Below are positions 144 to 63,956 of a DNA stretch of 64,000 nt, in pieces. The translations under genes were made by a program, and so were the position numbers. The notes below the pieces were generated by a model. It ran no database searches and was not told the DNA's origin. It was given only the letters and a program-made list of their open reading frames with translations. Numbering within the stretch: the first letter of the stretch is position 1; the number at the start of each line of letters is the position of its first letter. The DNA is from Eubacterium sp. (GTDB lineage Bacteria > Bacillota > Clostridia > Lachnospirales > Lachnospiraceae), in assembly GCA_021769425.1 (NCBI GenBank), contig JAETSX010000003.1, forward strand, positions 69,678 through 133,677. The letters run 5' to 3'.

Positions 144-154
144 GGAGAATCAGA

Positions 155-1765: not shown

Positions 1766-1784
1766 AGGGAAAAGGAGAAAAAAA

Positions 1785-2522: not shown

Positions 2523-2574
2523 AGCGGCATTTGCAATAGGGCGTAAATTGTGATATATTGGTAAAAATTATGAA

Positions 2575-3782: not shown

Positions 3783-3819
3783 AAAAATATAAGACAGAGA
3801 CAGTCAGGAGGGCTGAAAC

Positions 3820-5549: not shown

Positions 5550-5595
5550 TGGGGAGTAAGAATGCATAAGGATATAAGAAAAACAGCGTGAACAC

Positions 5596-6783: not shown

Positions 6784-6938
6784 ATGGCCGGCAGAATCCA
6801 TCGAATGACTGTCAGCAGGAATTGAATGGCCGGCAGAATCCATCGAATGACTGTCAGCAGGAATTGAATGGCCGGCAGAATCCATCGAATGACTGTCAGC
6901 AGGAATCGAATAGCCGGCAAAATCCATCGAATGTAAGG
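6781..6938. repeat. 42-bp tandem repeat: three perfect copies plus one degenerate partial copy, beginning exactly at the TGA stop of the upstream gene
   Basis: tgaatggccggcagaatccatcgaatgactgtcagcaggaat at 6781, 6823 and 6865, with a diverged copy at 6907-6938. Confidence 0.95.
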
Positions 6939-6951
6939 CAGGTTAGAAAGC

Positions 6952-8082: not shown

Positions 8083-8159
8083 AAACAGGAGAAGGAAACA
8101 GCTGCACGACCGGAATCGCATTTTTTACAGAAGCGGCGGCTGAGATGCAGGAGGAGAAA

Positions 8160-14259: not shown

Positions 14260-14280
14260 GCCGATGGAGGATATAAAACC

Positions 14281-41484: not shown

Positions 41485-41485
41485 G

Positions 41486-42460
41486 ATGAGTTATAGTAAT
41501 ATAGAATTTCCTGAAGGAAGTTTGTTTTTAGTCACAGGCGGAGCAGGATTTATTGGTTCTAATCTCTGTGAGGCAATTTTGTCCATGGGTTATAAAGTAA
41601 GATGTCTGGATAATCTTTCCACTGGAAAACAGGAGAATGTGGATTTATTTATAGGAAATCCGGATTATTCCTTTATTAAAGGAGATATCACGGAGCTTGA
41701 GACTTGCATGGAGGCCTGTAAAGGTGTAGATTTCGTACTAAATCAGGCAGCTTGGGGAAGTGTTCCTAGAAGTATAGAGATGCCGTTATATTATGAAGAA
41801 GTAAATATTAAAGGGACACTTAATATGATGGAGGCAGCGAGACAAAATAATGTGAAAAAATTTGTATATGCGTCCAGTTCTTCTGTGTATGGGGATCATC
41901 CGGTTCTGCCTAAAAAAGAGGGGCAAGAAGGGAATTTACTGTCTCCGTATGCCTTAACAAAGCGTGTAGGGGAGGAGTATGGAAAACTTTATTATAAGTT
42001 ATATGGTTTAGATACCTATGGCATGCGCTATTTTAATGTTTTTGGCAGAAGGCAGGATCCAGATGGCGCTTATGCAGCTGTGATACCGAAATTCTTGAAA
42101 TTATTATTAAATGATGAATCGCCGACCATTAATGGCGATGGAAAACAGTCGCGGGATTTTACCTATATTGATAATGTGATAGAAGCTAATTTGAAGGCAT
42201 GCAAGGCATCTCATGAGGCAGGTGGACAGGCATTTAATATTGCTTACGGCGGAAGGGAATATCTGATAGATTTATATTATGATATGTGTGATATATTAGG
42301 AAAAAAAATTGAACCTAAATTTGGACCTGATCGAGCAGGGGATATTAAGCATTCTAATGCGGATATATCGAAAGCAAGAGAATTGCTTGGGTATGATCCT
42401 AAATATAATTTTGCAGAAGGACTTCAATTGGCGATTGAATGGTATAAGGAAAATCTTTAA
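41486..42460 (+). CDS. UDP-GlcNAc(A) 4-epimerase (TviC/WbpP-like SDR)
   Basis: LFLVTGGAGFIGSNLCEA, the catalytic SPYALTKRV (YxxxK), and ATG 41486 after GGAGG. The ORF is open from 41450. Confidence 0.75.
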   Translation: MSYSNIEFPEGSLFLVTGGAGFIGSNLCEAILSMGYKVRCLDNLSTGKQENVDLFIGNPDYSFIKGDITELETCMEACKGVDFVLNQAAWGSVPRSIEMPLYYEEVNIKGTLNMMEAARQNNVKKFVYASSSSVYGDHPVLPKKEGQEGNLLSPYALTKRVGEEYGKLYYKLYGLDTYGMRYFNVFGRRQDPDGAYAAVIPKFLKLLLNDESPTINGDGKQSRDFTYIDNVIEANLKACKASHEAGGQAFNIAYGGREYLIDLYYDMCDILGKKIEPKFGPDRAGDIKHSNADISKARELLGYDPKYNFAEGLQLAIEWYKENL

Positions 42461-48609: not shown

Positions 48610-50013
48610 TTAAACAAAAACAATGAATCCCAGTACATTACTATTCTGTTCATTAGCCAAAGTTAATTCATTAGCTATCTCTTCATAAATAGACTGTCCT
48701 TTTTGTTCGATGAAAAGAAGGTTTCCAATTTCTGTTCCCTCCTTCAGAGATTCCACATTATAATATATACTTTCTCCATCTTTTACTTTTACATTTTGAT
48801 TGGATAATTCTTGTTTCAAAATGTTTAATGTTTCTGTATCTGCATTCTCATATTCACTACCTGTCATATAAATATTTTCAATTCCCTGTTGTTTGCAGGA
48901 AAGAGCAATATTTGCGGCTGCTACACTTATTTGTTGTTTTGGCGTTAAGTACTTTTTTTTGCGGTTTTTTAGGGATAATAATTTATCATCTATTACGGAC
49001 AAAAAGGCTCTCTTTTTGGGTGGAATATACACTTCTCCAAAAAGACGTGCTTTATAGATTGTACGAATTTCTTCTGAATTCTGGAGTTTTGATGCAAACA
49101 TCATTTTGCAGGCTATCCAGATACACAGAATAATAATACCCAAAAAAGCCCCCATAATTACATATTTCAAATTTAATCCTGGTTTTAAGATTTGTAAATC
49201 AGCTGTATTAGCATTCGATTTCTGCTCTTCTTCTAAATAAGCCAATTGCTGTTCATTCATATTTGCTTTCAAATTATTAAGTTGAGCAGCAAATGTTGCA
49301 ATATTTCCGGAAATCTGATTTTTTCTGTCTATCAATGTATTATCTACAATTACTTTTTGTGACTCCATCAACAATTTTAATTTATGTGCGCCTATCTCCT
49401 GAAATTCAGTTTCTTTTTTTTGAAGTTGCTTTTTAATAATTTTTGTTATGGAGCTTATTTTCTTTTCGTCTGGATAGGTTACCCTGATTAAAATGGAATT
49501 TTGACTTTGAGTGACTGACCATAATTCGTTAAGGCTTGCCTGGTTTACCGATAATTTTCCTTCTTCTATAACTATACTGCTTAATTCTCCGCTCTGAATA
49601 TAATTACAGTACATTGTAATTAAGTCGTTAGAATAATCATTTTTGTTTTCTTCTGTAAAGTTAAAGGTATAATCGGAATCTACATAGTACTGTAATTCTG
49701 TTATTGGCTTTTCATAAAGATTCATTTGCATCAAAGGAGAGGATGATAGATAATTTTTGTATTCGTCTATGCGGGCCATCAAAATTTTTACATTGTTTAT
49801 TTGCTGCATTTCAGTTTCAGACAGTTCTATGTCTTTTTCTAAATTAACATTTTTAGCTTCACGATATTTTCGGTTGTCACTTAAATATTTTATGCCGCTG
49901 AGTATCAAAGCAAATATTATGCCAAAGCATAATATTTGACGCCAGCTCAAAAGGATTTTCCAGAACAATTCTATTAGATTCATTTCATCGTTTTTCATCG
50001 GATGTGTTTCCAT
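48610..50013 (-). CDS. Wzz/chain-length-determinant-like protein with a C-terminal cytoplasmic domain lacking a P-loop
   Basis: MNLIELFWKILLSWRQILCFGIIFALILSG (Wzz N-terminus), a coiled periplasmic-type segment, and a second TM YVIMGAFLGIIILCIWIACKMMF. A ~150-aa tail follows. ATG 50013 follows GGAGGT. Confidence 0.55.
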   Translation of the reverse strand: METHPMKNDEMNLIELFWKILLSWRQILCFGIIFALILSGIKYLSDNRKYREAKNVNLEKDIELSETEMQQINNVKILMARIDEYKNYLSSSPLMQMNLYEKPITELQYYVDSDYTFNFTEENKNDYSNDLITMYCNYIQSGELSSIVIEEGKLSVNQASLNELWSVTQSQNSILIRVTYPDEKKISSITKIIKKQLQKKETEFQEIGAHKLKLLMESQKVIVDNTLIDRKNQISGNIATFAAQLNNLKANMNEQQLAYLEEEQKSNANTADLQILKPGLNLKYVIMGAFLGIIILCIWIACKMMFASKLQNSEEIRTIYKARLFGEVYIPPKKRAFLSVIDDKLLSLKNRKKKYLTPKQQISVAAANIALSCKQQGIENIYMTGSEYENADTETLNILKQELSNQNVKVKDGESIYYNVESLKEGTEIGNLLFIEQKGQSIYEEIANELTLANEQNSNVLGFIVFV

Positions 50014-50073
50014 TAATATTACCTCCATACATGTCATATTTAGTGTTTGTATCTAATATTTGTTTATAAATAT

Positions 50074-50245
50074 AATCACACAAACGTTACATCACGCATT
50101 AAGCAACATTTGTGTGATTGCTATATTTACTTTCTTTTGTATTTGATACTAATTTTAGAGATACAAAAGAAACAGCAAGTGATTTTGTTGTTTGTGCAAC
50201 AATTTATTAGTTTATAAGAAATCTCTAACAAACTAATAAATTGTT
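50074..50245. promoter_or_regulatory. Three consecutive perfect stem-loops in the GNAT-to-Wzz-like intergenic region
   Basis: Stems of 11 bp (50074-84/50109-19), 12 bp (50131-42/50161-72) and 16 bp (50198-213/50230-45). Confidence 0.6.
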
Positions 50246-50253
50246 AAATAGTT

Positions 50254-50766
50254 TCAATCTAAACATAGTGAATTACGGGTTATTTCTATATTGAACATAT
50301 CGTCTTGCTCGCCAACGATGGAAAAGCCTACGCGCTGATCCACCTTGATAATTCTTCCATTAGATTTTAATATTTCTCCTTTAATTTTATTTAGCTTTAA
50401 TACTTCAAAGCCAAATAGGCAAACTGCTTTCGTGGCTTCCGTTCCAATTCCTTTTTCAGGAGCTTTTTCCTTATCAACGACAACTCTCCCAAATTCTGAA
50501 ATTTTGTTCTCCCAATCAATATCGTATAGAGCTATTGCGCCAATAAATTCTTTTGGCTTATCTTTTTTCACAATTTTAAACATAATGTCGTTTTCTTTTT
50601 TTAAATATGACTCAAACCATATGTCTTGATCTTCTTTTTTGATTTCCTGGTGGGTTGCAAAATATTCTTTTTCTTGGTTTCGAAGCAAACGAAGAAGTTC
50701 AATATCTTCTTTTTCTAATGGTTTTAGGCGAATTCTTTTAAAATCGAACTCAAATTCATGTTTCAT
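50254..50766 (-). CDS. GNAT-family N-acyltransferase (RimJ/RimL-like)
   Basis: IGAIALYDIDWENKISEFGRVVVDKEKAPEKGIGTEATKAVCLFGFEVLKLNKI is a GNAT core. Confidence 0.65.
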   Translation of the reverse strand: MKHEFEFDFKRIRLKPLEKEDIELLRLLRNQEKEYFATHQEIKKEDQDIWFESYLKKENDIMFKIVKKDKPKEFIGAIALYDIDWENKISEFGRVVVDKEKAPEKGIGTEATKAVCLFGFEVLKLNKIKGEILKSNGRIIKVDQRVGFSIVGEQDDMFNIEITRNSLCLD

Positions 50767-50788
50767 TTTATATTTACCTTTCTAACAT

Positions 50789-51181
50789 TTAAGGCAGCTT
50801 TACTAGTGCTTCGCCCTCAATAACAATTCCATTTTTTGTACTTTTAATTGTTGTTAATAATTTAGCCTTATTGTTTTCTAATAGTTCTACTAATTCAACA
50901 CGGATTTTTAAGTATTCTCCTATATAAACTGGCCGTTTAAATTTTAAATTTTGCTGCATATATATTGTTCCGTTTCCTGGAAATTTTGTTCCGATGATTG
51001 TTGAAATATAAGAAGCACTTAACATTCCATGGGCGATTCTTTGCCCAAAGATACTTTCCTTTGCATAGGTATTGTCCATATGCAAGGGGTTATAATCACC
51101 TGAAAGTTCTGCAAATTTTTCAATATCATCAGAACTTATCTGTTTGTCCATTTCAAAATATTGACCTATTTGAAATCCCAT
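50789..51181 (-). CDS. MaoC-like hot-dog (R)-specific enoyl-CoA hydratase
   Basis: The hydratase motif GDYNPLHMDNTYAKESIFGQRIAHGML. Confidence 0.7.
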   Translation of the reverse strand: MGFQIGQYFEMDKQISSDDIEKFAELSGDYNPLHMDNTYAKESIFGQRIAHGMLSASYISTIIGTKFPGNGTIYMQQNLKFKRPVYIGEYLKIRVELVELLENNKAKLLTTIKSTKNGIVIEGEALVKLP

Positions 51182-51213
51182 TTCTTACTCCTTGTAACAA
51201 ATTATTATATTAT

Positions 51214-52350
51214 TTAATTTTTCTCAATAAATTTTATTACTTCATCACAGATTTTTTGTATATCTTCATATGTTAAATAAAGATTCATTGGTAGAGAAAG
51301 GGTGTGTTCACTTACATAATCAGAAAATGGGCATGTACCTTTTGCGTAATTATACATAGCGTAATTGATATTACTTGAATAGTGAACTCCTGGGAATATT
51401 TCCGCAGCATTTAAAGCAAGCATTAATTCATTACGATTTTCTACGCAAATCTGAAATAAATGATAAGAACTTTCACAACCGTTTTCAATTGGAACTAATT
51501 TTATTTTTTCTTTATATTTTTCAAATCTTTCTGTGTACCAATGTGCTAACTGGCGTCTATACGCATTGTCACGGTCTAAATATTTTAATTGCACTAACCC
51601 AATTGCAGCCATAATTGAGTTTCCATGGCCCTTTTCACCGACATATTCAACATCATATTTCCATTTATAATTTCCCATATTCTGTGTACGTGCATAAGTA
51701 TCCTTATTAATTCCTAACCATGCTTTTTTACGAACAATTTCATCAAATTTTCCATTTTTAAAACAGATCATCCCGCTATCAGCAGTTGGAAGATTCTTTA
51801 CAGCTTGAAAAGAATATACAACCACTTCTGCATCACCTCCAGGAATTTCTCCTTTGTATCGGGTTCCTGCCATATGTGCAGCGTCTAAAATTAATTTTAA
51901 ATTATTTTGTTTACAAATATTAACAATTTCATGATAATGTCCCATATTACCTCCAAGGCCTACATACATCACAGCACGGGTTCTATCTGTGATATGGGCT
52001 GATACGGATTCAGGAGTTAAGCACATAGTTTCATCAATATCTGCGAATACAGCTTTCATATGGGACTTCAAAATGGCGTGGTTAGAAGACACAAAAGTAA
52101 TTGGTGTAGTAATGATCTCATCTTCATCTGCCCAATTATATTGTTCTTTTAGAATGTCTATTGCCATATACAGTCCTATGGTAGAAGAATTTAAATAATG
52201 TGCAAAGGGAAGTCCCGTATATGCTTTCCAAGCATTTTCGAATTCAATTGTTTTAAACCCCAATCCAGTCCAACCGACCTCTAAACATTCTTTAATCTGT
52301 TCTAAACATTCATCAACCTCATACTTTGCTTTAAATAATTGAATTGCCAT
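51214..52350 (-). CDS. DegT/DnrJ/EryC1/StrS-family nucleotide-sugar aminotransferase
   Basis: The PLP-lysine region VVYSFQAVKNLPTADSGM, and DAAHMAGTRYKG. Confidence 0.75.
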   Translation of the reverse strand: MAIQLFKAKYEVDECLEQIKECLEVGWTGLGFKTIEFENAWKAYTGLPFAHYLNSSTIGLYMAIDILKEQYNWADEDEIITTPITFVSSNHAILKSHMKAVFADIDETMCLTPESVSAHITDRTRAVMYVGLGGNMGHYHEIVNICKQNNLKLILDAAHMAGTRYKGEIPGGDAEVVVYSFQAVKNLPTADSGMICFKNGKFDEIVRKKAWLGINKDTYARTQNMGNYKWKYDVEYVGEKGHGNSIMAAIGLVQLKYLDRDNAYRRQLAHWYTERFEKYKEKIKLVPIENGCESSYHLFQICVENRNELMLALNAAEIFPGVHYSSNINYAMYNYAKGTCPFSDYVSEHTLSLPMNLYLTYEDIQKICDEVIKFIEKN

Positions 52351-52377
52351 TTTTATTCCTCCTAGTAAAAGTTTTCA

Positions 52378-53265
52378 TTAATATATAAGTTTACCATTAG
52401 CCACATTTAACAAATGTTGACCATATGGTGATTTTCCATATCTATGAGCCGATAACAATAAATTTTCTTTATCAATCCAACCCTTTTGGTAGGCAATTTC
52501 TTCCGGTGCTGAGATCTTAATCCCTTGACGTTTTTCGATCATTTGAACAAAATTTGATGCTCCGATTAAACTATCCATTGTTCCTGTATCAAGCCAGGCA
52601 AATCCACGCCCTAAGACAATGCCTTTTAATGCGCCATGCTGCAAATATAAGTCATTGAGTGTAGTGATTTCTAATTCTCCACGGGCAGATGGTTTTACTT
52701 GCTTTGCAAAATTTGTTACCCGGTTATCATAAAAATATAACCCAGTAATACAATAATTGCTTTTAGGATATTTGGGTTTCTCTTCCACAGATACAACTTG
52801 ATTTGTTTTTTCATTAAATTCCATAATTCCAAATCGTTCTGGGTCATTGACATAATAACCAAATATAGTTGCATTTCCTTTTTCTGCGTTTTGGACGGCT
52901 TTTAGAAGTTTGTCTTTTAATCCGCTGCCATAGAAGATATTGTCACCTAAAATTAATGAACAAGTGTCATTTCCTATGAAATTCTCCCCTAATAAGAATG
53001 CTTGAGCCAAGCCATCAGGAGAAGGCTGCGCTTTATAGGATAGAGAGATGCCATATTGGTTACCGTCACCTAACAAATTTTGAAAGTTAGGAAGATCTGT
53101 TGGTGTTGAGATTATTAAAATATCTTTTATGCCTGCTAACATTAATGTTGACAAAGGATAGTAGATCATTGGTTTGTCATATACCGGTAAAAGTTGTTTT
53201 GAAGTTACCATTGTCAATGGATAAAGCCTTGTACCTGCTCCACCAGCTAAAATAATTCCTTTCAT
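52378..53265 (-). CDS. rmlA: Glucose-1-phosphate thymidylyltransferase
   Basis: [46 protein letters not shown] is near-canonical RmlA. Confidence 0.9.
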
Positions 53266-53538
53266 CTAAAACCTCCTTATTTCCTAAATTAAGTCCTTTA
53301 AATCACGACATCGTTTGAATTTTGGTGTTATTTAAAAATTAGGCCAAATTATATAAAATTATCTTATTTATGAAGTTGTAATGAAATCTATTATTTCTTA
53401 ATACTACCATTTTCCATAGAACAAATCAAGTGATTTTTATTTCATATTAAATGTTGCATTGCAAGCAGTTTAAAGAAAAAATAAATTTATTAAAAATATT
53501 TAAAAGTAATTACACAGTATTATAGGGATATGTTAAAG

Positions 53539-55238
53539 TGTACCCTTTGTCAAGTACAAAAAGTTTTTGTATTGGTCAATACTGCCATGTTCACATGCTA
53601 GTGCTGCTTGCAGCTCTTAACTACCCGTTTGTATATCCGGCAGGTGGTGTCAAAGCCACCGCAGGTGAGGCAAAGTTGGTGCCTTAACACCGCCTGCCGG
53701 ATATGCCATCTAATCGTTGTTTGATGGCAGCTATTGGGGCTGGTTCCTCTATTACTTCCAAAGGATATTCACTTGCCATAATATAAATGTAATACTCATT
53801 TGATGACAGCCTAGCAAGCTGCCATTGGTAACGGTTATTGCTATAGCACTCTATCCAATCATCAATGACTGCCTTTACATTAGGGAAATCCCTGCTCCCA
53901 GACAGGTCAACCTCATCTTTTATGTGGTCGAAAAAACTCTCCTGCGGTGCATTGTCCCAGCAGTTGCCTTTCCTGGACATGGACTGCCTGAGCTGTGTAT
54001 TCCTAACAATCTGTATGAACTGGCAGCTTGTGTAATGGTATTCCTGGTCGCTGTGGATGATGGTTTCCGCACTGAGTAATATCCCATGCTCCCGAACCAG
54101 GGCATGCACATTCTCCAGGACAAAATCTATTTCAAGCGACTCGCTGACCCCTGTATGCAAGGACCTACTTCGTGAAAGCATCCAGGATGGTAGACAGATA
54201 GCAGAATGTGCCATGATACGGAACATAGGTAATGTTTGTCAGGAGTGCTTTTCTTGCACAGTGTGCCTCAAACTCCCTGTTCAGCAGGTTTCCGGCAACA
54301 TTGTTCGTCTGAAGTGCCTTCGCCATCCTGCGGTAAGGGTTTGCTTTCCTAATTGGACAGAACAGCCTATATTTGTCCATAAGGTGCCGTATTTTTTTAC
54401 GTTCATCCGCACGGGCGGATCGCTCTGGAGGAGACGCATATAAATGCTCCTTGCTTCTTTCTGATAGCCGCGGAAACAGTATGCTTCCAGCACCAGTGCA
54501 AAATCCGCCCTGTCTTTTTTCTTACGTGCCTGCTTGGCTTCTTCCACTTTTAGCCAGCTGTAGTACCCTGATCTGGATATCGCGGCGATCTCACAGAGAA
54601 GCGAAACGCTCAACTCATTTTCATGCTGGGAAATCACTTTTCGTATAACCTCGAATTTTACGCCTGTTTTTCCCATGACTACATCCCCCGTTTTGGCAAA
54701 CTGCCCGTATTCATAATTTTTTACAAACTCCATTTTCTGCCGGAGGTAAAGCAGCCCATGCTGCATCAGTTCCACTGCCTGATCCTTTGGGATTGAGGAG
54801 TAGTGTGTGAAATGGGGCCTGCGTTTCCTACTGGGCGCATTGCCCTCATGCAGCCCTTCGGGGGATCCTTCCTCTTTTCTGATATGGTCCCGTATGGCCT
54901 GCACACACCGTTTCCTGAGCGCATCAACATCTTACCCAAGATCCGTAAGGCTCCTTGGCGGGTACTGGACTGCCTGGTAGCGTTTCCAGAACTCTTTTTT
55001 GAATTCCAGCGTAAAACGTATTGTACTTTCAGAAATTCTGTATGTGTAAGGGTTTAATTGAAAAATGTTTATCTGCTGTTTGGTAAACTTGCTATGGTTG
55101 CGTGTCACTGCGGTTGTCCCTCCATATTAACTAAATGCAAAGTCACTGTCTAATATTTAGGATTCCCATAAATCTTCTGTCTATTACTTGGGAGTTCCTA
55201 TGATTTACACAAACTTTGTGTCAAGTTTTATGGGTACG
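53539..55238 (-). mobile_element. IS3-family insertion sequence, decayed copy; boundaries approximate
   Basis: Imperfect terminal inverted repeats: TGTACCCTTTGTCAAGTACAAAAAGTTT at 53539, and the reverse complement of aaactttgtgtcaagttttatgggtac ending at about 55237. OrfA/orfB-type genes lie inside. Confidence 0.55.
53684..55108 (-). pseudogene. IS3-family transposase orfA/orfB, inactivated
   Basis: DDE core HSDQEYHYTS...SMSRKGNCWDNAPQESFF and an A7 slippery run at 54392-54398, which is expected for the family. Lesions: in-frame TAA at 54932-54934, in-frame TAG at 54165-54167, and a likely 1-nt insertion in the cccc run at 54148-54151. Confidence 0.7.
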
Positions 55239-55420
55239 TTTTATGTAAATTATCTATATACTAGAGTCGAATCAGGTTAAATTTTAGTATTTTATATAGA
55301 TAATTTTATGATAGATGATTGAACCATACAAGGGGCTTTTAAATATAATTCCAAAAGTCAATGAAATTATACTTCATCCAAGTTTAAAAAATTATGTTTA
55401 CCTGAAGTTAACAATTTTTC

Positions 55421-55450
55421 TTGACAAAGTAAGGGGGGGGGGGGTAAACT
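55421..55450 (+). promoter_or_regulatory. Promoter whose -35/-10 spacer consists mostly of a G12 tract
   Basis: TTGACA (55421-55426), an 18-nt spacer aagtaa+G12, then TAAACT (55445-55450). GGGAGG and ATG 55474 lie downstream. Confidence 0.6.
55433..55444. repeat. Homopolymeric G12 tract
   Basis: 12 consecutive G read directly, in an otherwise AT-rich region. Confidence 0.95.
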
Positions 55451-55473: not shown

Positions 55474-55731
55474 ATGGTGTATTTTTTTAGAGGCGTTATG
55501 CAAGATATTCTTGTGAAGAAAAAAACGAATGAAGAAGCAAGCGTCAGGAGGAATAAATGGGAGTGTTTTAGAAATGTTTTAGCGGCATCTTCAAAAAAAA
55601 ATATTGTTTGGCTTATGTTATTTTCTTTGCTGCTGTCTACTTGTTTTTTTACCTATATAAATGCATTCATAAATAAAATTATGCCCAGAGACGAACTTAT
55701 GGTTACAAAACAGGGAAGAGTGGAATTATGA
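55474..55731 (+). CDS. Small membrane-anchored protein (85 aa); possibly the detached N-terminus of the next gene
   Basis: A single TM (IVWLMLFSLLLSTCFFTYINAFI), with an RBS upstream. No homology recognised. Confidence 0.35.
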   Translation: MVYFFRGVMQDILVKKKTNEEASVRRNKWECFRNVLAASSKKNIVWLMLFSLLLSTCFFTYINAFINKIMPRDELMVTKQGRVEL

Positions 55732-55744
55732 GAATAATGTAATT

Positions 55745-57469
55745 TTGGGCAAAACTAAGGGAAGTTCGATTGCGATACCAATAGTGAGGGCTCCCAATGG
55801 GGGGATCAGCGTTTGGTGTCAGGCATCTTCAGGGGAAATAAATGTTGGCGTGGGCGGAGAAGTAAAACATTATGAACTGTATTCAGAAGAGGGAGCCTAT
55901 ATACAGATTACGCCCTTTGAAGACAGTTTTATTTCCGTATTGGTTACAATAGTGGTCTATTCTATTCTGGCATGCCTTGTAATGATTTTACTGATTCTTG
56001 GGGTAAGTTTTTTTCAATATATATGTGTTAATTTTAAGGAGCCTCAATATGAATATTGGATGTTGGTGCTGGTGTTATTCATAGGTACTTATTTATTTGA
56101 TGTTATTTGGTATAGGAGAGGGATTGTGAATTTTAATGCCTTTGGGGATCAGCCATATTATTGGGAGAAGGGAGGAGCGTTTGCTCAGATAGGCATCACC
56201 AGGGAAATGATTGTTGAGGAATTGAAATCAATTGCATGTTTTAGAGGATACGGTAATTTTTTGCCAAGTTTTATTGCACAGTTTATTGGAAATAGGTTTC
56301 ATGTGGATGCTTATATTATTTATTTTCTGTTTCCGTCTTTAACGAATGCTGTGTTGTTTGGCTATATCCTTCCAAAGATTTATGAAATCTTTCATGGAAA
56401 AAAGGTTTTTAGGTGGCAGATTTTAATGGCGCTATGCGGTTTTATGATTTTGTATAAAGGGCAATTGGTAGGTCTATTAGGAGATTTTTATGGCTTAACT
56501 CTTTATTTGGCGGGAACGTTATATGCAATATTGATTTTTAGAACGGGAGATAGGAAATATGCTGTTGTCAGCGGTGCATGTTTCTCATTATGTTTAACGA
56601 TACGGACTAGTTATTTAATAGGAGTTGTGTTGTTTATAGTTTTAATGGTGATTATGACAGTGCTAAATTTCACGGGAAAATTACAGCGTAATAATATTTA
56701 TATGATGGGTGAAATGTCAGGAAAATGTGCTGCAGGAATAATTGCTGCGTTTACGGCATCGTTCTTGTGTGTATGTATCCCTCAGGTGTATATTAATGGA
56801 CTGCAGGGGCATAGAGGGCTTTTTGCTTATGATAAAGATGGGGCATATGGAACACAATCTACCACATTGTTGGAGCAGTCGGCGGATTATGCTTTAAGAG
56901 GATATCTAGCAGGCTATCCCTATAGCATCTATGATAAACAAATCCATTCTATCAGACAGGAGGCAGGATATCGGGATGATAAAGAAATGACGATGGCGCA
57001 GTGTTTTGATGCATATGCCAAAAGCCCGGTAGATACATTGGCGGCTATATTAAAAAGGGCTTTTGCAATGGTGGATGCCAAAACTAATATAATATTACCT
57101 GATGAAAGATGGTATACGCACACAAAATACTATATATTTAGCACCATAAATTATGTTTTTATTGCAGCAGCGTTATTTACTTTTTTAAATAAACGATTAA
57201 GACGGTTATTGTATAAAAAAGCGGAACTACTTTTTTGGGGAGTGATTCTAATAGGGCCTATAGCTCCGCTATTGGCGGCAAAGGTGGAGTGGAGAGAAGC
57301 GATAGTTGGATATCTTTTTTATATAAGCTATGTGTGCGCGTTTTGTTTTACGGGAAGTATTTATGATGAAGAGAAGAAAAGGGCAATAAGAGAGAGTAAT
57401 TTTCTTCCGTTTTTAACATGTACAGTATTAATCTTTCATACAGTTTCGCTTACTATGTATCATTATTAA
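55745..57469 (+). CDS. Large polytopic membrane protein, candidate GT-C-type transferase of the decoration module
   Basis: More than 12 hydrophobic segments. The only available start is TTG or another non-ATG codon before the first TM. Its position is equivalent to ArnT/GtrC-type genes. Confidence 0.35.
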   Translation: MGKTKGSSIAIPIVRAPNGGISVWCQASSGEINVGVGGEVKHYELYSEEGAYIQITPFEDSFISVLVTIVVYSILACLVMILLILGVSFFQYICVNFKEPQYEYWMLVLVLFIGTYLFDVIWYRRGIVNFNAFGDQPYYWEKGGAFAQIGITREMIVEELKSIACFRGYGNFLPSFIAQFIGNRFHVDAYIIYFLFPSLTNAVLFGYILPKIYEIFHGKKVFRWQILMALCGFMILYKGQLVGLLGDFYGLTLYLAGTLYAILIFRTGDRKYAVVSGACFSLCLTIRTSYLIGVVLFIVLMVIMTVLNFTGKLQRNNIYMMGEMSGKCAAGIIAAFTASFLCVCIPQVYINGLQGHRGLFAYDKDGAYGTQSTTLLEQSADYALRGYLAGYPYSIYDKQIHSIRQEAGYRDDKEMTMAQCFDAYAKSPVDTLAAILKRAFAMVDAKTNIILPDERWYTHTKYYIFSTINYVFIAAALFTFLNKRLRRLLYKKAELLFWGVILIGPIAPLLAAKVEWREAIVGYLFYISYVCAFCFTGSIYDEEKKRAIRESNFLPFLTCTVLIFHTVSLTMYHY

Positions 57470-57527
57470 ATGAAAAAGTTTGACGGATTTTAAATATTGC
57501 CATCTTATCAGAGAAGGAGAAAGAGGA

Positions 57528-58655
57528 ATGGTTCCATTTAATGTACCGCCCTATTTGGGGTCTGAATTAGATTATATAAAGGATGTTGTGAGGGAGCGCA
57601 AGATATGCGGGGATGGCGCCTATACGAAAAAGTGCAATGCCTGGTTGGAAGAGCATACTGGGACGAAAAAGGCTTTGCTTACCACTTCTTGTACACATGC
57701 CACGGAGATGGCTGCGTTACTCTGCAAAGTTGGGCCGGGAGATGAAGTCATAATGCCATCGTATACCTTCGTGTCTACGGCAGATGCATTTGTCCTTCGG
57801 GGAGCAACGGTGGTTTTTGTGGACATCAGGCCAGATACGATGAATATTGACGAAACATTGATAGAAGCTGCCATTACAGATAAAACTAAGGCGATTGTGC
57901 CAGTTCATTATGCAGGTGTGTCATGCGAGATGGATGTTATTATGAAAATTGCAGAACGATATCATTTATTTGTAATCGAAGACGCTGCGCAGGGGCTCAT
58001 GAGCACATATAAAGGAAAAGCGCTTGGCGCTATAGGAGATTTTGGCTGCTACAGCTTTCATGAAACGAAAAACCTTTCTATGGGGGAAGGCGGGGCGTTG
58101 CTTATAAAAAATGAAAAGGATATTGAAACGGCGGAAATTATACGCGAAAAGGGAACGAATCGCAGTAAATTTTTTCGAGGGCAAATTGATAAGTATACAT
58201 GGGTGGAACAGGGCTCATCGTATTTGCCAAGCGAGCTTAATGCGGCATATCTTTATGCTCAGCTGGAAAGAGGAAATGAAATGATTAATAACCGAGTTGC
58301 AAGCTGGAACAATTACTATGAGGAACTGAAACCATTGGCGGATGCAGGGAAAATAGATCTTCCAACGATACCTAAGGAGTGTACCCATAATGGGCATATG
58401 TTTTATATTAAAACAAAGAATCTTAAGGAACGTTCCGAGTTTCTTTCATTCATGAGGGAGAATAATGTTGGATGCGTATTCCATTACATACCGCTTCACA
58501 CATCGCCGGCGGGTAAAAGATATGGGCGATTTGTGGGTGAGGACAAGTATACCACAAAAGAAAGTGAACGTCTTGTAAGATTGCCTATGTACTATGGATT
58601 AAAAAAAGAAGATTGCCAGAAAGTGTGTGAGAAAGTGAAGGATTTTTATAAGTAG
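57528..58655 (+). CDS. wecE: dTDP-4-amino-4,6-dideoxygalactose transaminase
   Basis: MVPFNVPPYLGSELDYI...GDEVIMPSYTFVSTADAFVLRGATVVFVDIRPDTMNIDETLIEAAITDKTKAIVPVHYAGV...IIREKGTNRSKFFRGQIDKYTW is nearly collinear with E. coli WecE as I recall it. Confidence 0.8.
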   Translation: MVPFNVPPYLGSELDYIKDVVRERKICGDGAYTKKCNAWLEEHTGTKKALLTTSCTHATEMAALLCKVGPGDEVIMPSYTFVSTADAFVLRGATVVFVDIRPDTMNIDETLIEAAITDKTKAIVPVHYAGVSCEMDVIMKIAERYHLFVIEDAAQGLMSTYKGKALGAIGDFGCYSFHETKNLSMGEGGALLIKNEKDIETAEIIREKGTNRSKFFRGQIDKYTWVEQGSSYLPSELNAAYLYAQLERGNEMINNRVASWNNYYEELKPLADAGKIDLPTIPKECTHNGHMFYIKTKNLKERSEFLSFMRENNVGCVFHYIPLHTSPAGKRYGRFVGEDKYTTKESERLVRLPMYYGLKKEDCQKVCEKVKDFYK

Positions 58656-59009
58656 ATGATGAAACAAGAGAGGATAAAAGTGTACATTGAATTGCACATA
58701 TTGCTCTTGATTTATTCTTTAGGTGCAGTATGTTCGAAATATGCGGGGCAAAATGAATTTTTGTCCGGCGGGTTTATATTTTATTATGGATTAGTGCTGC
58801 TCGACTTAGCCATATATGCAATTGCTTGGCAGCAGATATTGAAAAAACTGCCTTTAGTAACAGCTTATGCAAATAAGGCTGTTACAATTATCTGGGGGTT
58901 ACTGTGGGGAACGTTGATTTTTAAAGAGAAAGTGACTGTTTGGAATATTATTGGAGCAATTATAATAGTAGTTGGGATATATCTGGTGGTGATGGAAGAT
59001 GCGGGATGA
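58656..59009 (+). CDS. Small 4-TM EamA/SMR-like protein (ArnE-like flippase subunit)
   Basis: 117 aa with 4 hydrophobic segments. It is paired with a second gene of similar size that overlaps it by 11 nt. Confidence 0.55.
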   Translation: MMKQERIKVYIELHILLLIYSLGAVCSKYAGQNEFLSGGFIFYYGLVLLDLAIYAIAWQQILKKLPLVTAYANKAVTIIWGLLWGTLIFKEKVTVWNIIGAIIIVVGIYLVVMEDAG

Positions 59010-59346
59010 TTTGGGATATGTGGTTATATTTCTGGCAGCAGTTTTAATGTCATCTATATCACAAATTTTATTAAAAAAAAGTGCGGAACAAGAATGTGAA
59101 AGTAGGATAAAAGAATATCTGAATATTCCTGTTATCGTAGCGTATGGATTGTTATTCTGTTCATCGCTTGTTATAGTTCTGGCTTATAGAGGGGTTCCAT
59201 TGAATATGGGACCCGTATTGGAAGCGACAGGATATATATGGGTTTCGATTTTAGGTGTGATATTTTTAAAAGAACATATTAAAGGGAAGAAAATATTGGG
59301 TTTAATAGTAATTATAATAGGAATATTTATTTTTAATATATCATAG
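58999..59346 (+). CDS. Small 4-TM EamA/SMR-like protein (ArnF-like flippase subunit)
   Basis: 115 aa with 4 hydrophobic segments, overlapping the previous gene. Confidence 0.55.
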   Translation: MRDDLGYVVIFLAAVLMSSISQILLKKSAEQECESRIKEYLNIPVIVAYGLLFCSSLVIVLAYRGVPLNMGPVLEATGYIWVSILGVIFLKEHIKGKKILGLIVIIIGIFIFNIS

Positions 59347-59355
59347 GAGAAAAGG

Positions 59356-60291
59356 ATGAAATTACTAAGTTTTGTTATACCTTGTTATAGAAGTGAAAAA
59401 ACGATAGAAAAAGTTATTGATGAAATTATTTTTGTTGTTGGAAAAAGGGCAGAGTATGATTATGAAATAATAGCAGTAAACGATTGCTCGCCGGACAATG
59501 TATATGAAGTGCTTAAGAATTGCGCCTTGCAAAACTCCAAGATTAAAATTGTTAATTTAGCAAGAAATGTTGGAAAGCATGCTGCGGTTATGGCTGGATA
59601 CGCATTTGTTAATGGTGAGTATATTATTAATTTAGATGATGATTTTCAATGTCCTGTATATGAGCTATGGAATCTTCTCGCTCCCCTTTTAGCGAATGAT
59701 GCAGATATTGCTACTGCGGAATATAAAATAAAGAAAGAATCAATATTGAAACGTTTTGGCAGTAATGTGAACCTTTGGTTTTCAGAACGGATGTTGGATA
59801 AGCCTAAAGGCATTCGTTTTGAAAATTTTAGTGCTATGAAAAGGTTTGTTTGTGAAGAAGTTAAGAATTATAAAAATCCATATCCTTATTTAGAGGGGCT
59901 TTTAATGGGGGTTTCTAAGCAAATTGTTACTGTGCCTATGGAAAATCGAAAACGAGCGGATGACAATATTTCAGGATTTACTATGATTAAATCAATATCG
60001 TTGTTTGTAAATGGATTGACAACATTTTCAACTAAGCCTCTTAGAATAGCCTCTTTTATAGGGTTTTTATTTGCTGTTATAGGATTTGTTTATGGTGTAG
60101 CTATTGTTATTCAAAAATTAGTAAATCCGGATGTGCTTTTAGGGTACAGTTCTATTATGGCAGTTATTATTTTTTCTAGTGGAATTATGATGATGATACT
60201 TGGGATGATTGGGGAGTATGTGGGGCGTATCTATATAAGCCTTAATAATTCACCGCCCCAATATGTGATTAAAGAAAAGATTAATTTATAA
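59356..60291 (+). CDS. ArnC/GtrB-like GT2 polyprenyl-phosphate sugar transferase
   Basis: LSFVIPCYRSEKTIEKVI...IIAVNDCSPDN...NLARNVGKHAAVMAGYAFVNGEYIINLDDDFQCP, plus two C-terminal TMs. Confidence 0.7.
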   Translation: MKLLSFVIPCYRSEKTIEKVIDEIIFVVGKRAEYDYEIIAVNDCSPDNVYEVLKNCALQNSKIKIVNLARNVGKHAAVMAGYAFVNGEYIINLDDDFQCPVYELWNLLAPLLANDADIATAEYKIKKESILKRFGSNVNLWFSERMLDKPKGIRFENFSAMKRFVCEEVKNYKNPYPYLEGLLMGVSKQIVTVPMENRKRADDNISGFTMIKSISLFVNGLTTFSTKPLRIASFIGFLFAVIGFVYGVAIVIQKLVNPDVLLGYSSIMAVIIFSSGIMMMILGMIGEYVGRIYISLNNSPPQYVIKEKINL

Positions 60292-60484
60292 TGGTTTCAA
60301 TAAAGGGAAAATAGAAATTTGATTATCTTGCGATATGGTGTTTTTTGACATTTTCAATGGATATAGATTGAAAAGGAATTTTGTCGTTGGAGAATAAAAT
60401 AATATGCAAAATCATTATGTTGTAGGAAATGAGTTTTCAGAAAACGAAGGTGTATATTTAAAAACGGAATAGGAGAAAGCGGAT

Positions 60485-61405
60485 ATGAATGTTACGTCAT
60501 TTGTGGATAATAATTATAGATATATCAGGAGTTTTATAAATAGGGATTATGGTGTTTTGGCAGAGCAGATAAAGAAAGAAAAAAATATTTTATCTTATTA
60601 TGAGGAAAAGGATGATTTGTTAGTAGGATATAGAATTGAAAAAAATAATTCAGTGAGCAATATATATGGATTTGATTGTTATGTAGTCAGGTTCTATTTT
60701 GCGAACGTATCTACATTGCACAATGAATATCAGGAAATGCTATATCAGAATTTGCTAAAGAATTTAAAGAAAGAAATGGAAAAGAGGAATGGATACTATA
60801 ACTTGCGGATTCCTACTCATATGGTTGATATGGTAAAAGCGTTTAATGGGGTGTTTGAAAAACCTATTTTTTGTGGAGGAACAGTTGAAGAATTTATATT
60901 TAATAAACAGGTTGGTCAGAGTAATAGAAACCAATTAAATATATTTGAAGCGGAGCGAAGATATTTACAGAACAATAAAGAATTATTACTTAAGATGACG
61001 TATGAGTCATTTGCGACTTACCAAGGTCAATATCATATTTCAGGCGTGACAGAATATCAGGCTGGAAAAATATATGAGAACTGGATTAACGATAGTCTGA
61101 GTGGCGAATCAGGGGATAAGATTATTGTGGCAGAATTTGAGAACCGACCAATCGGCTTTGTAACCATTGGGGAAGATGATTTTTCAGTTGAAGGGATATT
61201 GTCTGCCGTTTCTAGTGAGAATAGGCAATTAGGGGCATATAGGTCAATGATTACGTATATTATAAATTATGCGTATTTAAGAGGAAAAGCATTTATTACA
61301 AGTACACAGTTCGATAATTTTATCGTACAGGGAACTTGGAATTCATTAGGATTACGGCCTTTTTACTCCATATATAATATGCATTTAGATTATCGAAAAA
61401 TTTGA
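60485..61405 (+). CDS. GNAT-fold acyltransferase with an N-terminal extension, possibly a WecD-like dTDP-fucosamine acetyltransferase
   Basis: C-terminal IIVAEFENRPIGFVTIGEDD...RQLGAYRSMITYIINYAYLRGKAFITSTQ is a GNAT core. The gene sits in a wecE context. Confidence 0.4.
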   Translation: MNVTSFVDNNYRYIRSFINRDYGVLAEQIKKEKNILSYYEEKDDLLVGYRIEKNNSVSNIYGFDCYVVRFYFANVSTLHNEYQEMLYQNLLKNLKKEMEKRNGYYNLRIPTHMVDMVKAFNGVFEKPIFCGGTVEEFIFNKQVGQSNRNQLNIFEAERRYLQNNKELLLKMTYESFATYQGQYHISGVTEYQAGKIYENWINDSLSGESGDKIIVAEFENRPIGFVTIGEDDFSVEGILSAVSSENRQLGAYRSMITYIINYAYLRGKAFITSTQFDNFIVQGTWNSLGLRPFYSIYNMHLDYRKI

Positions 61406-61624: not shown

Positions 61625-63247
61625 TTACATTGTGCCAGAACAATTCACAATAACATTCGGATCCCAAGGGGCTAACTTTGCAAGTGCGGTATCCGTCATT
61701 TTAGTGCATGGCAGATTTTGTAATAGATATTTCAAATACTTGTAAATGTTCAGGTTATGTGCTTTGGCCATTTCAACCATTGTATATACCGTCGCACTTG
61801 CTTCCGCTCCTTTCGGCGTATCACTAAACAGCCAATTCTTACGGCCTAAAGTAAAGGGGCGGATGGAATTCTCTGACAGGTTATTAGAAAAACTACAACG
61901 TCCATCTTCTAAATATGTCATGGACAGTTCTTTATGATTTTGGGCATAGTTCACCGCTTTCTCAAAGCGCGTTCCTTTTTTAGGAGTCTGCTGTGGGAGC
62001 CATGTCCAAAAAGCATCCAGCACGGGTTTCTCTTTTTGGAGCCGGTATTCCTTCAGCTGTTCATAGGCATGTCCTTTCTGCTGTGACTGCATTTCATATT
62101 CGAACAGTCTGTTACAGCACTGGACTGCCTGGGCTGCCGGATTGCTGTAATCCAGTTCTTTCACTTTGGGGACTGTTTCCACAAAATATCTGCGCAGATG
62201 CGCTGGGCAGCAGCAACGTTTGATATCTGGCAGATTATTATATCCCTGATAACCATCTGTCTCAAGGTAGCCTTTAAATCCTCTCAAGAATTCCTCAGCA
62301 TTAAATTTTGCCCTGGTTTCCGTATACTTATAGAGAAGAATCGGAGGCAGCCCATCTTCTCCTGTATGGAAAAGCCACATATATGAGTCCGTTTCCGCTT
62401 TACGCCCTGGCTCTTTTAAAACCTGGACCCTGGTCTCATCGGCCATAAGGAACTGGCATTTCAAAAGTTCCCGATGGAAATGATCATACAGCGGGCTGAG
62501 ATAATTTCAGGAACAGTGGATGCTCCAGTTTGCCAGTGTTGCCCTTGAGAGGGTGATGCCCATCTGTTTCCAGTCCTGTTCCTGACGGTATAATGGCATG
62601 GCATTGGCATATTTTTGATACATCATCCATGCAACCACGGAGGCTGACGCGTAACTATGGGGAATCAGCGCCTCCGGTACATTCGCTTTTACAAACTGGA
62701 TGTTCCGGGCCATAGCAGACGCAGTGGAGCATTTCGGACATTTTGCTGTTTCCCGGTAGATATTGACGACTTCCCCTTTCGCCGGAGTAAAACGGAACTC
62801 CAGACGGACGAATTCCTTCCCAATGACTTTCATTTCAGTGCCGCAATCTGGGCAATGTTTCTGCTCTTCAGAAAGCGGGAGCGCCTCATCCCTGGATGGG
62901 ACTCCTTTGAAAATTTCATCACCGGTACGTTTGGCATGGCGTGTATGTTCTTTGACAATGGCCGTTTCTGATCCTTGTGACTCATCCATCGGCTGCGCTT
63001 CCTGTTCCGCTTCATTAAACAGGCTTAACTGCCCTTTGTTATTCTTTGATTTTTCGCTGGAAGTGCCGAAGAGCTTCCCTGTAAGATACTCTACCTGCTC
63101 ACGAAGTCCCGTAATTGTAGAATTGCATTCTTCTACTGTGCCACGAAGAGACATGATCAGTTCGTTCTGGCTGCTTATCATCATATTTAATTGGCTGATC
63201 ATATCTTTCTGCTCCATGATCTTGGAGTCTTTTGCATCCTTCGCCAT
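61625..63247 (-). pseudogene. tnpC: IS66 transposase TnpC interrupted by one in-frame TGA
   Basis: The two ORFs (62507-63247 and 61625-62464) are in the same frame: ...ANWSIHCS TGA NYLSPLYDHFHRELLKCQFLMADETRVQVL. Zn-finger CPDCG...CPKCS and a DDE_Tnp_IS66 core are present. Confidence 0.8.
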
Positions 63248-63366
63248 ATGTTTTCTGCCCCTTTTCTGATACTTCTATTTTACCATAAAACGCTCTTGAA
63301 AAGAAGCAGAAAACGCAGTGTTTTCAAGGATTGCAGCAATGTTTGGCTAACCTCTGCCAAAGCATT

Positions 63367-63744
63367 TTATGTAGCTTGTTCTGAAGGACTGTCATCTGCA
63401 ACATCGGAAATCCGGAATGCTTTTGGCTGTTCAATCTCAAGTCCTGACATCAGCCAGTCGAATTGCTGCCAGGTAAGTGACCTTACCTCTTCGGAATTCC
63501 GGGGCCAGCGGAACCGGCCCGGTACCTCCATCCGTTTATAGAGAAGTAAAAAACCATCTCCCTCCCAGAGAAGTGCCTTGATCCTGTCGCATCTTTTCCC
63601 ACAGAACAGATATAGGGCACTGCGCCTTGGGTCCATATGGAGCTTATCCTGCACAATAGCGCAAAGACCATCAATTGCACGTCTCATATCTGTATAGCCA
63701 CAGACGATATTGATTTCATCCGCAGCGGTAATGTCGCCTAACAT
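63367..63744 (-). CDS. tnpB: IS66 Orf2 (TnpB)
   Basis: INIVCGYTDMRRAIDGLCAIVQDKL...LYLFCGKRCDRIKALLWEGDGFLLLYKRME is the canonical IS66 TnpB. Confidence 0.9.
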   Translation of the reverse strand: MLGDITAADEINIVCGYTDMRRAIDGLCAIVQDKLHMDPRRSALYLFCGKRCDRIKALLWEGDGFLLLYKRMEVPGRFRWPRNSEEVRSLTWQQFDWLMSGLEIEQPKAFRISDVADDSPSEQAT

Positions 63745-63956
63745 AATGTTCTCCCCAGGGTTCGGAGCACTTGTTCAAGAAAACGGGCATCTGTTCCCTG
63801 CGGTATCCGGATGGTAACTCCTGACATAAACAGTTCGATTACTGGAATCCCAGATAAAACTGAAGCAGAATAAGGAATGGATTCAGAAATGGATTCAGCT
63901 TCCAACCTGGGAGCCGATGGCTCCTGGAAATTAATTTTCACAATCTCCTGTTTCAT
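63738..63956 (-). CDS. tnpA: IS66 Orf1 (TnpA)
   Basis: 72 aa, overlaps tnpB by 7 nt, with the typical C-terminal VTIRIPQGTDARFLEQVLRTL. Confidence 0.7.
   Translation of the reverse strand: MKQEIVKINFQEPSAPRLEAESISESIPYSASVLSGIPVIELFMSGVTIRIPQGTDARFLEQVLRTLGRTLC

Follow-up and report, generated by a model that had tools for sequence, protein, structure and literature searches.

In the multi-component glycosylation systems described in Gram-positive bacteria, such as CsbB/GtcA/YfhO, GtlA/GtlB, GacI-L, Csd of L. lactis and PgfS of S. mutans, a GT-A enzyme activates a sugar on the C55 lipid carrier phosphate (C55-P), a flippase follows, and a GT-C glycosyltransferase decorates cell-wall polymers outside the membrane. 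The characterised systems use uridine diphosphate (UDP) donors (UDP-Glc, UDP-Gal or UDP-GlcNAc), their larger GT-C enzymes often carry extracellular carbohydrate-binding domains, and the term dTDP (thymidine diphosphate) is absent from the review devoted to them (PMC8035078). The locus considered here, positions 55474-61405 on the plus strand of a 64-kb stretch of DNA from Eubacterium sp. (contig JAETSX010000003.1; the whole stretch is called the window), appears to follow the same plan with different parts. It contains genes of the WecE/WecD type, to which none of those systems is linked, its candidate flippase is an SMR/EamA pair and not GtrA or Wzx, and its candidate GT-C enzyme belongs to an unannotated family. 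The region is probably a three-component (Gtr/Arn-type) extracytoplasmic glycosylation cassette joined to a dTDP-amino-sugar pathway, and on the best reading of its genes the donor of the glycosylation system would be undecaprenyl-phosphate-linked 4-acetamido-4,6-dideoxygalactose (Fuc4NAc) derived from a dTDP sugar.

The closest precedent is wxc region 3 of Xanthomonas campestris, a likeness that comes from literature descriptions and not from a comparison of sequences. This region encodes the aminotransferase WxcK, the GT2 WxcL, WxcM, the small membrane protein WxcN and WxcO, a 750-aa integral membrane protein described as horizontally variable or hypervariable (PMC4878081, PMC2238763, PMC13133917), and the FucNAc side branch is lost when either wxcK or wxcN is mutated (PMC4878081). 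The two gene sets are alike in logic (aminotransferase, GT2, small membrane protein and large membrane protein) and, in Xanthomonas, a dTDP-derived N-acetyl-fucosamine is added as a side branch after synthesis of the main chain. The initial annotation of the window had called the entry of a dTDP donor into a Gtr-like route unusual; unusual it is, but a precedent exists in the Xanthomonas genetics (PMC4878081). The wxc system differs from the cassette in that it is Gram-negative, modifies the O-antigen of lipopolysaccharide, and uses the 3-amino isomer of the sugar (Fuc3NAc), for which an isomerase is needed. Its mechanism is likewise inferred from genetics. The small membrane protein WxcN is GtrA-like and in this also differs from an SMR pair.

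The Arn system, which modifies lipid A with 4-amino-4-deoxyarabinose (Ara4N) through ArnB, ArnC, ArnA, ArnD, ArnT and ArnE/F, resembles the cassette, in which the flippase and the GT-C enzyme are putative, in several parts: a DegT-family 4-aminotransferase, a subsequent N-acylation of the nucleotide-linked amino sugar, a GT2 that carries two C-terminal transmembrane (TM) segments and acts on undecaprenyl phosphate, a flippase made of two different 4-TM SMR-like proteins, and a GT-C transferase. N-acylation before lipid loading would parallel the formylation step of Arn. The proteins of the cassette nevertheless fall well short of the Arn families: scores and curated cut-offs (in bits) are 199 against 631 for ArnB, 125 against 529 for ArnC, 29 and 25 against 92 for ArnE, and 18 against 99 for ArnF, and the cassette contains no ArnA, ArnD or ArnT genes. 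In addition, the cassette sugar would be a 6-deoxyhexose from a dTDP precursor whereas that of Arn is a pentose from UDP-glucuronic acid, and because the organism is a monoderm Lachnospiraceae the acceptor would not be lipid A. The cassette, judged from its proteins, appears to work like Arn/Gtr without being Arn. With the enterobacterial common antigen (ECA) pathway the cassette shares the same aminotransferase (63.5% identity) and a similar two-domain GNAT fold, which in that pathway make dTDP-Fuc4NAc. There, WecF moves the sugar in the cytoplasm onto the undecaprenyl-pyrophosphate-linked lipid II; the cassette has no WecF-type enzyme and a polyprenyl-phosphate GT2 in its place. Finally, the three-component pentofuranose systems show that unconventional donors, accessory tailoring enzymes and swappable GT-C enzymes can be accommodated (Kelly et al., 2024; PMC11127046), but their donor is built from phosphoribosyl pyrophosphate on the lipid and not from a nucleotide amino sugar. 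The literature consulted yielded no description of undecaprenyl-phosphate-Fuc4NAc, of a dTDP donor combined with a GT-C enzyme, or of a WecE-linked system in Firmicutes.

The features of the module and of its sugar-nucleotide supply are the following. Scores throughout are bits against the cut-offs of curated models (Pfam, NCBIfam), and fold matches are Foldseek searches of AlphaFold2 (AF2) models against the PDB.

55421-55450, plus strand: promoter-like site found by promoter scan, TTGACA (55421-55426), 18-nt spacer, TAAACT (55445-55450)
55474-57469, plus strand: putative GT-C glycosyltransferase gene, a pseudogene here, 703 aa when intact
57528-58655, plus strand: WecE orthologue, dTDP-4-keto-6-deoxy-D-glucose 4-aminotransferase (639 bits), reading frame open from TTG 57480
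58656-59009, plus strand: small SMR/EamA-like membrane protein 1, 117 aa, putative flippase subunit (EamA 30.6 bits, ArnE 29)
58999-59346, plus strand: small SMR/EamA-like membrane protein 2, 115 aa, 4 TM, putative second flippase subunit
59356-60291, plus strand: GT2 polyprenyl-phosphate glycosyltransferase, GT-A domain and two C-terminal TM segments (PF00535)
60485-61405, plus strand: two-domain GNAT acyltransferase, 306 aa, WecD-like by structure (AF2 and Foldseek)
52378-53265, minus strand: RmlA, glucose-1-phosphate thymidylyltransferase (457 bits, cut-off 361)

All seven open reading frames (ORFs) that the initial annotation had named are present in the ORF list on the plus strand at these places. 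Its proposal of an Arn/Gtr-like architecture holds in so far as the module has a GtrB/ArnC-type GT2, an SMR-like pair, a polytopic protein with a GT-C-like model, a true WecE and a WecD-like acetyltransferase; membership in the Arn pathway proper does not hold.

The assignment of the aminotransferase is the firmest of these. It was described as a near-canonical WecE, and it scores 639 bits on NF008687 and TIGR02379 (cut-offs 375 and 435), keeps the pyridoxal phosphate-lysine motif SFHETKN, and has 63.5% identity with E. coli WecE (PDB 4piw) over 367 columns. Among PDB sequences the WecE structures 6blg and 4piw rank first (546-550 bits) and ArnB reaches 155 bits; on the models of other aminotransferases it reaches 199 bits for ArnB and 208 bits for PseC (cut-off 423.5). 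Translation probably starts at ATG 57528 (375 aa) and not at TTG 57480, since residue 17 is where the model alignments begin, as do the gene calls made on identical contigs. Supply of the precursor would begin with RmlA, the only rmlA of the window, which lies, as first described, on the other strand across an insertion sequence (IS) remnant of the IS3 family and is transcribed divergently from the module. In the closest genome compared, rmlA directly abuts the promoter region of the GT-C gene with no IS between them. The window contains no rmlB, in agreement with the initial annotation: the sole candidate (41450-42460) scores 156 against a cut-off of 365 and was rejected as a TviC-like SDR protein (299 bits). 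This local lack of rmlB is one of the points in favour of a chemistry closer to that of Arn, in which the WecE-like enzyme aminates a UDP-4-keto sugar (e.g., UDP-4-keto-6-deoxy-GlcNAc or a UDP-4-keto-pentose) and the GT2 takes a conventional UDP donor. DegT-family enzymes can change substrate, and the window also encodes a PglF/CapD-like UDP-GlcNAc 4,6-dehydratase (29506-31359) and TviB/TviC-like enzymes. Such a chemistry is nonetheless improbable in view of the identity of the aminotransferase to E. coli WecE and its far higher score on the WecE models than on those of ArnB and PseC, of the presence of RmlA as the adjacent nucleotidyltransferase in three lineages, and of the lack of an ArnA-type decarboxylase/formyltransferase in the cassette.

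From its sequence, the GT2 appears to be a polyprenyl-phosphate transferase of the GtrB/ArnC type and of full length. Its two C-terminal TM segments, already noticed in the initial annotation, lie at residues 234-252 and 267-285, and the protein aligns end to end with PgfS (146 bits, cut-off 500) and ArnC (125 bits); these values are below the equivalog cut-offs, and membership is thus at the level of the GtrB/PgfS superfamily only. Among PDB sequences it matches the GtrB structure 5ekp with 121 bits and ArnC structures with 101-108 bits, and it is 28-29% identical to GtrB of phages SfII and SfV. PgfS and GtrB use UDP-sugar donors. There is another account of the locus, in which WecE and the GNAT are co-located with the membrane proteins without working with them: the dTDP-Fuc4NAc made by the two enzymes would go to a soluble glycosyltransferase that the neighbouring exopolysaccharide locus provides in the cytoplasm, and the polytopic protein would join the GT2 and the SMR pair in an ordinary UDP-Glc or UDP-GlcNAc side-chain system. 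The curated matches of the GT2 (PgfS and GtrB), the UDP-Glc, UDP-Gal or UDP-GlcNAc donors of the characterised Gram-positive systems (PMC8035078) and the presence of several GT4 and other glycosyltransferases upstream in the window all fit such a division of labour. Taken as a whole it is considered unlikely, for reasons that lie in the position of WecE. This gene is located within the cassette, where gaps of 0-58 nt separate it from the GT-C gene on one side and the putative flippase genes on the other, its linkage to the GT2 persists in about ten lineages with very different neighbours, which include a pilus/type II secretion system (T2SS) cluster (L018) and an ABC-transporter glycan locus (L016), and no GT2 relative examined lacks a nearby WecE.

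The comparison behind these statements covers contigs and genomes numbered L001-L020, of which L001, L002 and others are Logan metagenomic contigs. The search for related loci with the closer alignment found four species genomes. The order GT-C, WecE, SMR, SMR, GT2 is kept in L004-L009 and L013-L015, and in L016 (Butyrivibrio) GT-C, WecE and GT2 are kept while the SMR pair was not detected; the recurrence of the same gene order in several divergent genomes excludes a chance arrangement. Identity of the GT-C protein to the intact form of that of the window ranges from 42 to 84% over these loci: 81-84% in L013 (Lachnospiraceae MGBC000170), 62% in L004-L006, where the cassette lies inside a Wzx/Wzy locus, 50% in L015 (Hungatella), 49% in L007-L009 and L014, and 42% in L016. 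Each of the GT2 relatives examined (44-93% identity) has a WecE orthologue within about 5 kb, and the two genes are within three genes of each other at all loci except L020, in which the genes between them are unmapped. The relatives found by other routes (L010 and L017-L020; GT2 44-65% identical) also have a WecE orthologue nearby, 54-72% identical. Of the loci found by such routes, L010-L012 were reached through homologues of the GNAT (GT2 45% identical), L017, L018 and L019 are three long-contig matches picked from the GT2 search (62-65%), and L020 is an unverified fecal "bacteriophage" contig (46%). RmlA is immediately adjacent in L013, L016 and L019. The synteny of GT2 and WecE across lineages is the best in silico support for a donor that would be derived from a dTDP sugar.

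The polytopic partner varies among the WecE-GT2 loci. In L010, L018 and L019 it is a protein of 536, 714 and 462 aa, respectively, with 10 TM segments each, no Pfam match, and a probability of at most 14% in hhalign comparison with the profile of the 67-member family of the window protein. Such variation is the pattern expected if the GT-C enzyme were to set acceptor specificity. As a side observation, the L018 cassette (positions 1-14963 of a 3.17-Mb genome), with its 714-aa polytopic protein, GT2, GNAT, EamA and WecE, lies within a type IV pilus/T2SS cluster that includes pilin-like N_methyl genes and a sigma-54 activator, which hints that some cassettes of this type may glycosylate pilins and not polysaccharides.

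The N-acyltransferase also varies. The GNAT of the module had been called WecD-like, and this applies to its fold and not to sequence membership in the WecD family (NF008212). Its AF2 model (predicted local distance difference test, pLDDT, 90) shows the two-domain layout, an N-terminal domain followed by a C-terminal GNAT domain, and its top Foldseek match is E. coli WecD (2fs5; E 1.1e-12, target TM-score 0.73). GNAT and WecD sequence models match the 306-aa protein weakly (18-19 bits) and the sequence search against the PDB gave no useful match, so that the fold search alone is informative. Since other tandem GNATs follow WecD closely in the Foldseek list, fold does not settle the substrate specificity, and the protein is regarded as a putative dTDP-Fuc4N N-acetyltransferase. 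A homologue adjoins WecE and GT2 in L010-L012. Every mapped cassette (all but L015 and L020) has some N-acyltransferase gene, of varying type. The acyl-tailoring genes are a WecD-like GNAT in the window, L013 and L010, with an additional MaoC in L010; an LbH acyltransferase and an ATP-grasp enzyme in L004-L006, the ATP-grasp block being common to L017; Acetyltransf_3 in L007-L009; and a set of acyl carrier protein (ACP), LuxCE and FabA genes in L019. This last set belongs to a large group of acyl-building genes beside the WecE-GT2 core in L019 (7950-14936) and L007 (1-10001), which encodes an AMP-binding enzyme, LuxE, LuxC, a 78-80-aa ACP-like protein, two FabA-like dehydratases and a thiamine pyrophosphate-dependent enzyme, with NeuB in addition in L007. 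Its gene content suggests that elaborate N-acyl substituents may be made there.

Flipping of the lipid-linked sugar is assigned, by prediction, to the two small membrane proteins. They overlap, as had been noted, with 11 nt in common, and have 3-4 hydrophobic segments each; protein 2 scores 27.5 bits on EamA, 27 on EbrA and 25 on ArnE. Protein 1 is kept beside WecE in L004-L009, L013-L015 and L017. The flippase assignment does not hold for every locus: no SMR pair is detectable in L010, L016 and L019, and L018 shows only one EamA gene.

The polytopic protein has no Pfam or NCBIfam match and eleven hydrophobic segments, and by sequence search it founds what appears to be a small Pfam-less family: 16 clusters were found in a word-indexed search, and 167 cluster representatives at E <=1e-3 among 1.84 billion proteins in a profile search. 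No member was found in 50,697 phage records, and there is thus no sign of phage-borne seroconversion. The AF2 model was made on P0002, a protein 88% identical to that of the window (pLDDT 69). It consists of an N-terminal TM helix, a beta-sandwich-like domain (residues 61-175) and a helical bundle. One check proposed at the outset was whether the protein would model as a transporter rather than a GT-C enzyme, and it does not: ranks 1-16 of the Foldseek list are all GT-C proteins (DPY19 C-mannosyltransferase, EmbA/B/C, ALG3, AftA, STT3), PMT, ALG9 and ArnT stand further down, and transporters appear only from rank 17 with probabilities of at most 0.12. Pfam PMT_2 is matched by six of 67 family members (best E 4.7e-5), and every other Pfam family by two at most. 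Among these 67 diverse members, D254, Y258, P329, P465, Q466 and R636 (P0002 numbering) are invariant and R286, D366, R406 and E634 nearly so. In the model D254, part of an FGD motif, lies between a preceding TM helix and two short helices, a layout that may correspond to the first external loop of GT-C enzymes. A GT-C fold is most likely on this modelling. It could alternatively be argued that the protein is a polymerase, ligase or transporter and that the lipid-linked sugar is used otherwise, e.g., as a primer or by a different enzyme that glycosylates proteins. This proposal draws on the lack of Pfam/NCBIfam matches, on low fold TM-scores, and on the partners at other WecE-GT2 loci, which have no detectable homology to the polytopic protein; it is given little credence here, because the top 16 fold matches are GT-C proteins with no Wzy, WaaL or MFS protein above probability 0.12 against the PDB, PMT_2 is the sole recurrent Pfam family, and the pattern of conserved Asp and Arg residues fits GT-C enzymes. 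The segment formed by the N-terminal TM helix and beta domain (profile positions ~10-200) also occurs stand-alone in proteins of 180-260 aa or fused elsewhere (P0121-P0163 among the matches of the profile search), and is possibly a mobile extracellular module that binds glycans.

In the window, the GT-C gene is broken. The initial annotation had listed a small TM protein and a 574-aa polytopic protein as two genes, which was mistaken: the 85-aa ORF (55474-55731, one TM) and the 574-aa ORF (55745-57469) are fragments of one 703-aa gene cut in two by a frame-shifting 116-bp deletion at 55708|55709. The window matches contigs L001 and L002 at 100% identity for 2.7 kb to the left of this point and 8.3 kb to its right; both contigs have a further 116 bp in between, and restoring this segment fuses both ORFs into the 703-aa gene. 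The segment spanning the deletion is kept in 15 of 15 homologues (637-696 aa), including an invariant Trp and Ile, and both GT-C paralogues of L013, the closest genome, carry ~121 nt at the deletion point. In the protein collection, the 703-aa form occurs in four Logan contigs and the 85-aa and 574-aa forms in a single NCBI contig. The deletion removes part of the extracellular beta domain and puts the rest of the gene out of frame. The 574-aa ORF starts with TTG without a Shine-Dalgarno sequence and lacks the N-terminal signal-anchor, and the gene is therefore treated as a pseudogene unless the assembly is wrong at this point. The frame-shift would probably leave the last step dead, and the final transfer is most likely non-functional in the source genome. 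The 85-aa ORF was also considered as a small membrane protein in its own right, for instance an activator like GacJ; this was rejected because, as far as the deletion, its sequence is that of the N-terminus of the intact protein. In L013 the GT-C gene is present as two tandem paralogues (7382-9463 and 10001-12082, 87.6% identical) where the window has one. The promoter side of the window gene aligns about as well with the upstream region of one paralogue as with that of the other, the synteny on the rmlA side continues as in copy 1, and the body of the gene is closer to copy 2; this fits either recombination or deletion in the lineage of the window or duplication in L013.

The pathway to which these parts point would run as follows. 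RmlA, encoded next to the module, and an RmlB encoded elsewhere would produce dTDP-4-keto-6-deoxy-glucose, which WecE would aminate to dTDP-Fuc4N, a sugar of predicted galacto configuration. The WecD-like GNAT would then N-acetylate it to dTDP-Fuc4NAc, and the membrane-anchored GT2 would load the sugar on undecaprenyl phosphate. The two SMR-like 4-TM proteins would act as a heterodimeric flippase, after which the 703-aa GT-C enzyme with its N-terminal extracellular beta domain would transfer the sugar to a surface glycan already completed. This acceptor would probably be the product of the Wzx/Wzy locus that adjoins the module at 29.5-48.5 kb of the window.

Several observations weigh against this pathway. 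The best curated scores of the GT2 are those of PgfS and GtrB, and no GtrB/ArnC-type enzyme is known to use a dTDP donor. The GNAT reaches only 19 bits on the WecD sequence model (cut-off 219), the SMR-like pair stays far under the ArnE/ArnF cut-offs (18-29 bits against 92-99) and is not seen as a pair at the four loci mentioned above, and rmlB is missing from the window and from every locus examined. For the GT-C protein, the fold scores, taken by themselves, are low (best E 2.6e-3, TM-scores 0.17-0.34), residues 480-580 of the P0002 model are poorly modelled or unmodelled at the pLDDT of 69, and the profile of the 67-member family gave no meaningful match to PDB sequences. The 116-bp deletion, in turn, might be an assembly error in the source genome.

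An additional layer of regulation is suggested by homopolymeric G tracts. Expression of the module probably starts at the promoter-like site at 55421-55450, which is followed by a GGGAGG ribosome-binding site and ATG 55474, and whose spacer contains a tract of 12 G (55433-55444), the only G or C run of at least 8 in the 64-kb window. The tract is G12 in the window and L001 and G11, with a 17-nt spacer, in the otherwise identical L002; in L013, both GT-C paralogues have their own TTGACA-G10-TAAACT promoter with a spacer of 19. These differences suggest that the tract may be hypermutable and cause phase variation of cassette expression. In L004-L006, intragenic G tracts in the GT4, WecE, LbH-acyltransferase and Acyl_transf_3 genes vary in length; intragenic tracts range from G6 to G12, at positions ~8134, 12685, 15274 and 18746 in L004-L006 and 12307 in L007. 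Over 22,085 bp, a single mismatch and three indels separate L004 from L006; all three indels lie in poly-G tracts, and the tract in WecE is G7 in L004, G9 in L005 and G6 in L006. Changes of length coincide with intact versus split gene calls on near-identical metagenomic contigs. Tract length thus varies between otherwise identical sequences, with homopolymer sequencing error as a remaining caveat, and the slipped-strand signature suggests that glycan tailoring in Lachnospiraceae may be subject to phase variation at several genes. Nothing specific on poly-G phase variation in Lachnospiraceae was found in the literature.

These observations can be joined in a wider proposal, which is tentative and to which we give somewhat less than an even chance. 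The WecE-linked GT2 clade would be a widespread and unrecognised group of polyprenyl-phosphate glycosyltransferases that use dTDP-linked N-acyl-4-amino-4,6-dideoxyhexoses for a swappable, phase-variable decoration of surface glycans. Around a conserved core, gut Clostridia would swap GT-C families, and with them acceptor or linkage specificity, as well as N-acyl tailoring genes (for acetyl, hydroxyacyl or ATP-grasp-ligated groups), and poly-G tracts would switch single steps on or off, making this a combinatorial system in commensals. If true, the donor range of three-component systems would extend to dTDP-derived N-acyl amino-deoxyhexoses, so far hinted at only genetically in Xanthomonas, and a GtrB/ArnC-type enzyme with a thymidine nucleotide donor would represent a new specificity class. 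A Pfam-less family of membrane proteins would gain a GT-C function, as would the other unannotated polytopic partners of WecE-GT2 loci. Moreover, abundant gut Lachnospiraceae would diversify their surface glycans through swappable, poly-G phase-variable cassettes, which would bear on phage receptors and on the immune recognition of commensals.

The module is framed by mobile elements:

53438-55302, strand not assigned: IS3-family remnant between rmlA and the module promoter (weak rve_3 match on a 180-aa ORF)
61625-63956, minus strand: IS66-family element, tnpA/tnpB and split tnpC, right boundary of the module

The IS3 remnant is absent from L013, the closest relative, with which collinearity stops at 53437 and resumes at 55303, and it is thus an insertion in the window. 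The IS66 element was identified from DDE_Tnp_IS66, LZ_Tnp_IS66, zf-IS66 and TnpB_IS66 on the matching genes of L001; its tnpC (61625-63247) is split into ORFs of 246 and 279 aa, and the element is therefore probably defective. The G+C content from ~32 to 62 kb is 31-42%, much below that of the first 30 kb of the window (42-49%).

A second amino-sugar block lies at 48610-53265 on the minus strand and encodes RmlA, a DegT aminotransferase, a MaoC-type hydratase, an Acetyltransf_3 GNAT and a 2-TM Wzz-like protein. The pairing of MaoC and acyltransferase suggests that an N-(hydroxyacyl) amino sugar may be made by this block, and the anthrose operon of B. anthracis has a similar gene content. A DegT protein 80% identical to that of the block, together with a GNAT, accompanies the cassette in Butyrivibrio L016. 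In this genome (Butyrivibrio sp. INlla16), TIR-domain and ThsB-like (Thoeris-type) genes are found just upstream of the RmlA/GT-C cassette (1695-3736). Predicted AAA-ATPase/PD-(D/E)XK nuclease fusion genes (PF09820, PF08011) are present at 31593-33200 of the window and at 16972-21256 of L007, and they recur beside these glycan loci in unrelated genomes.

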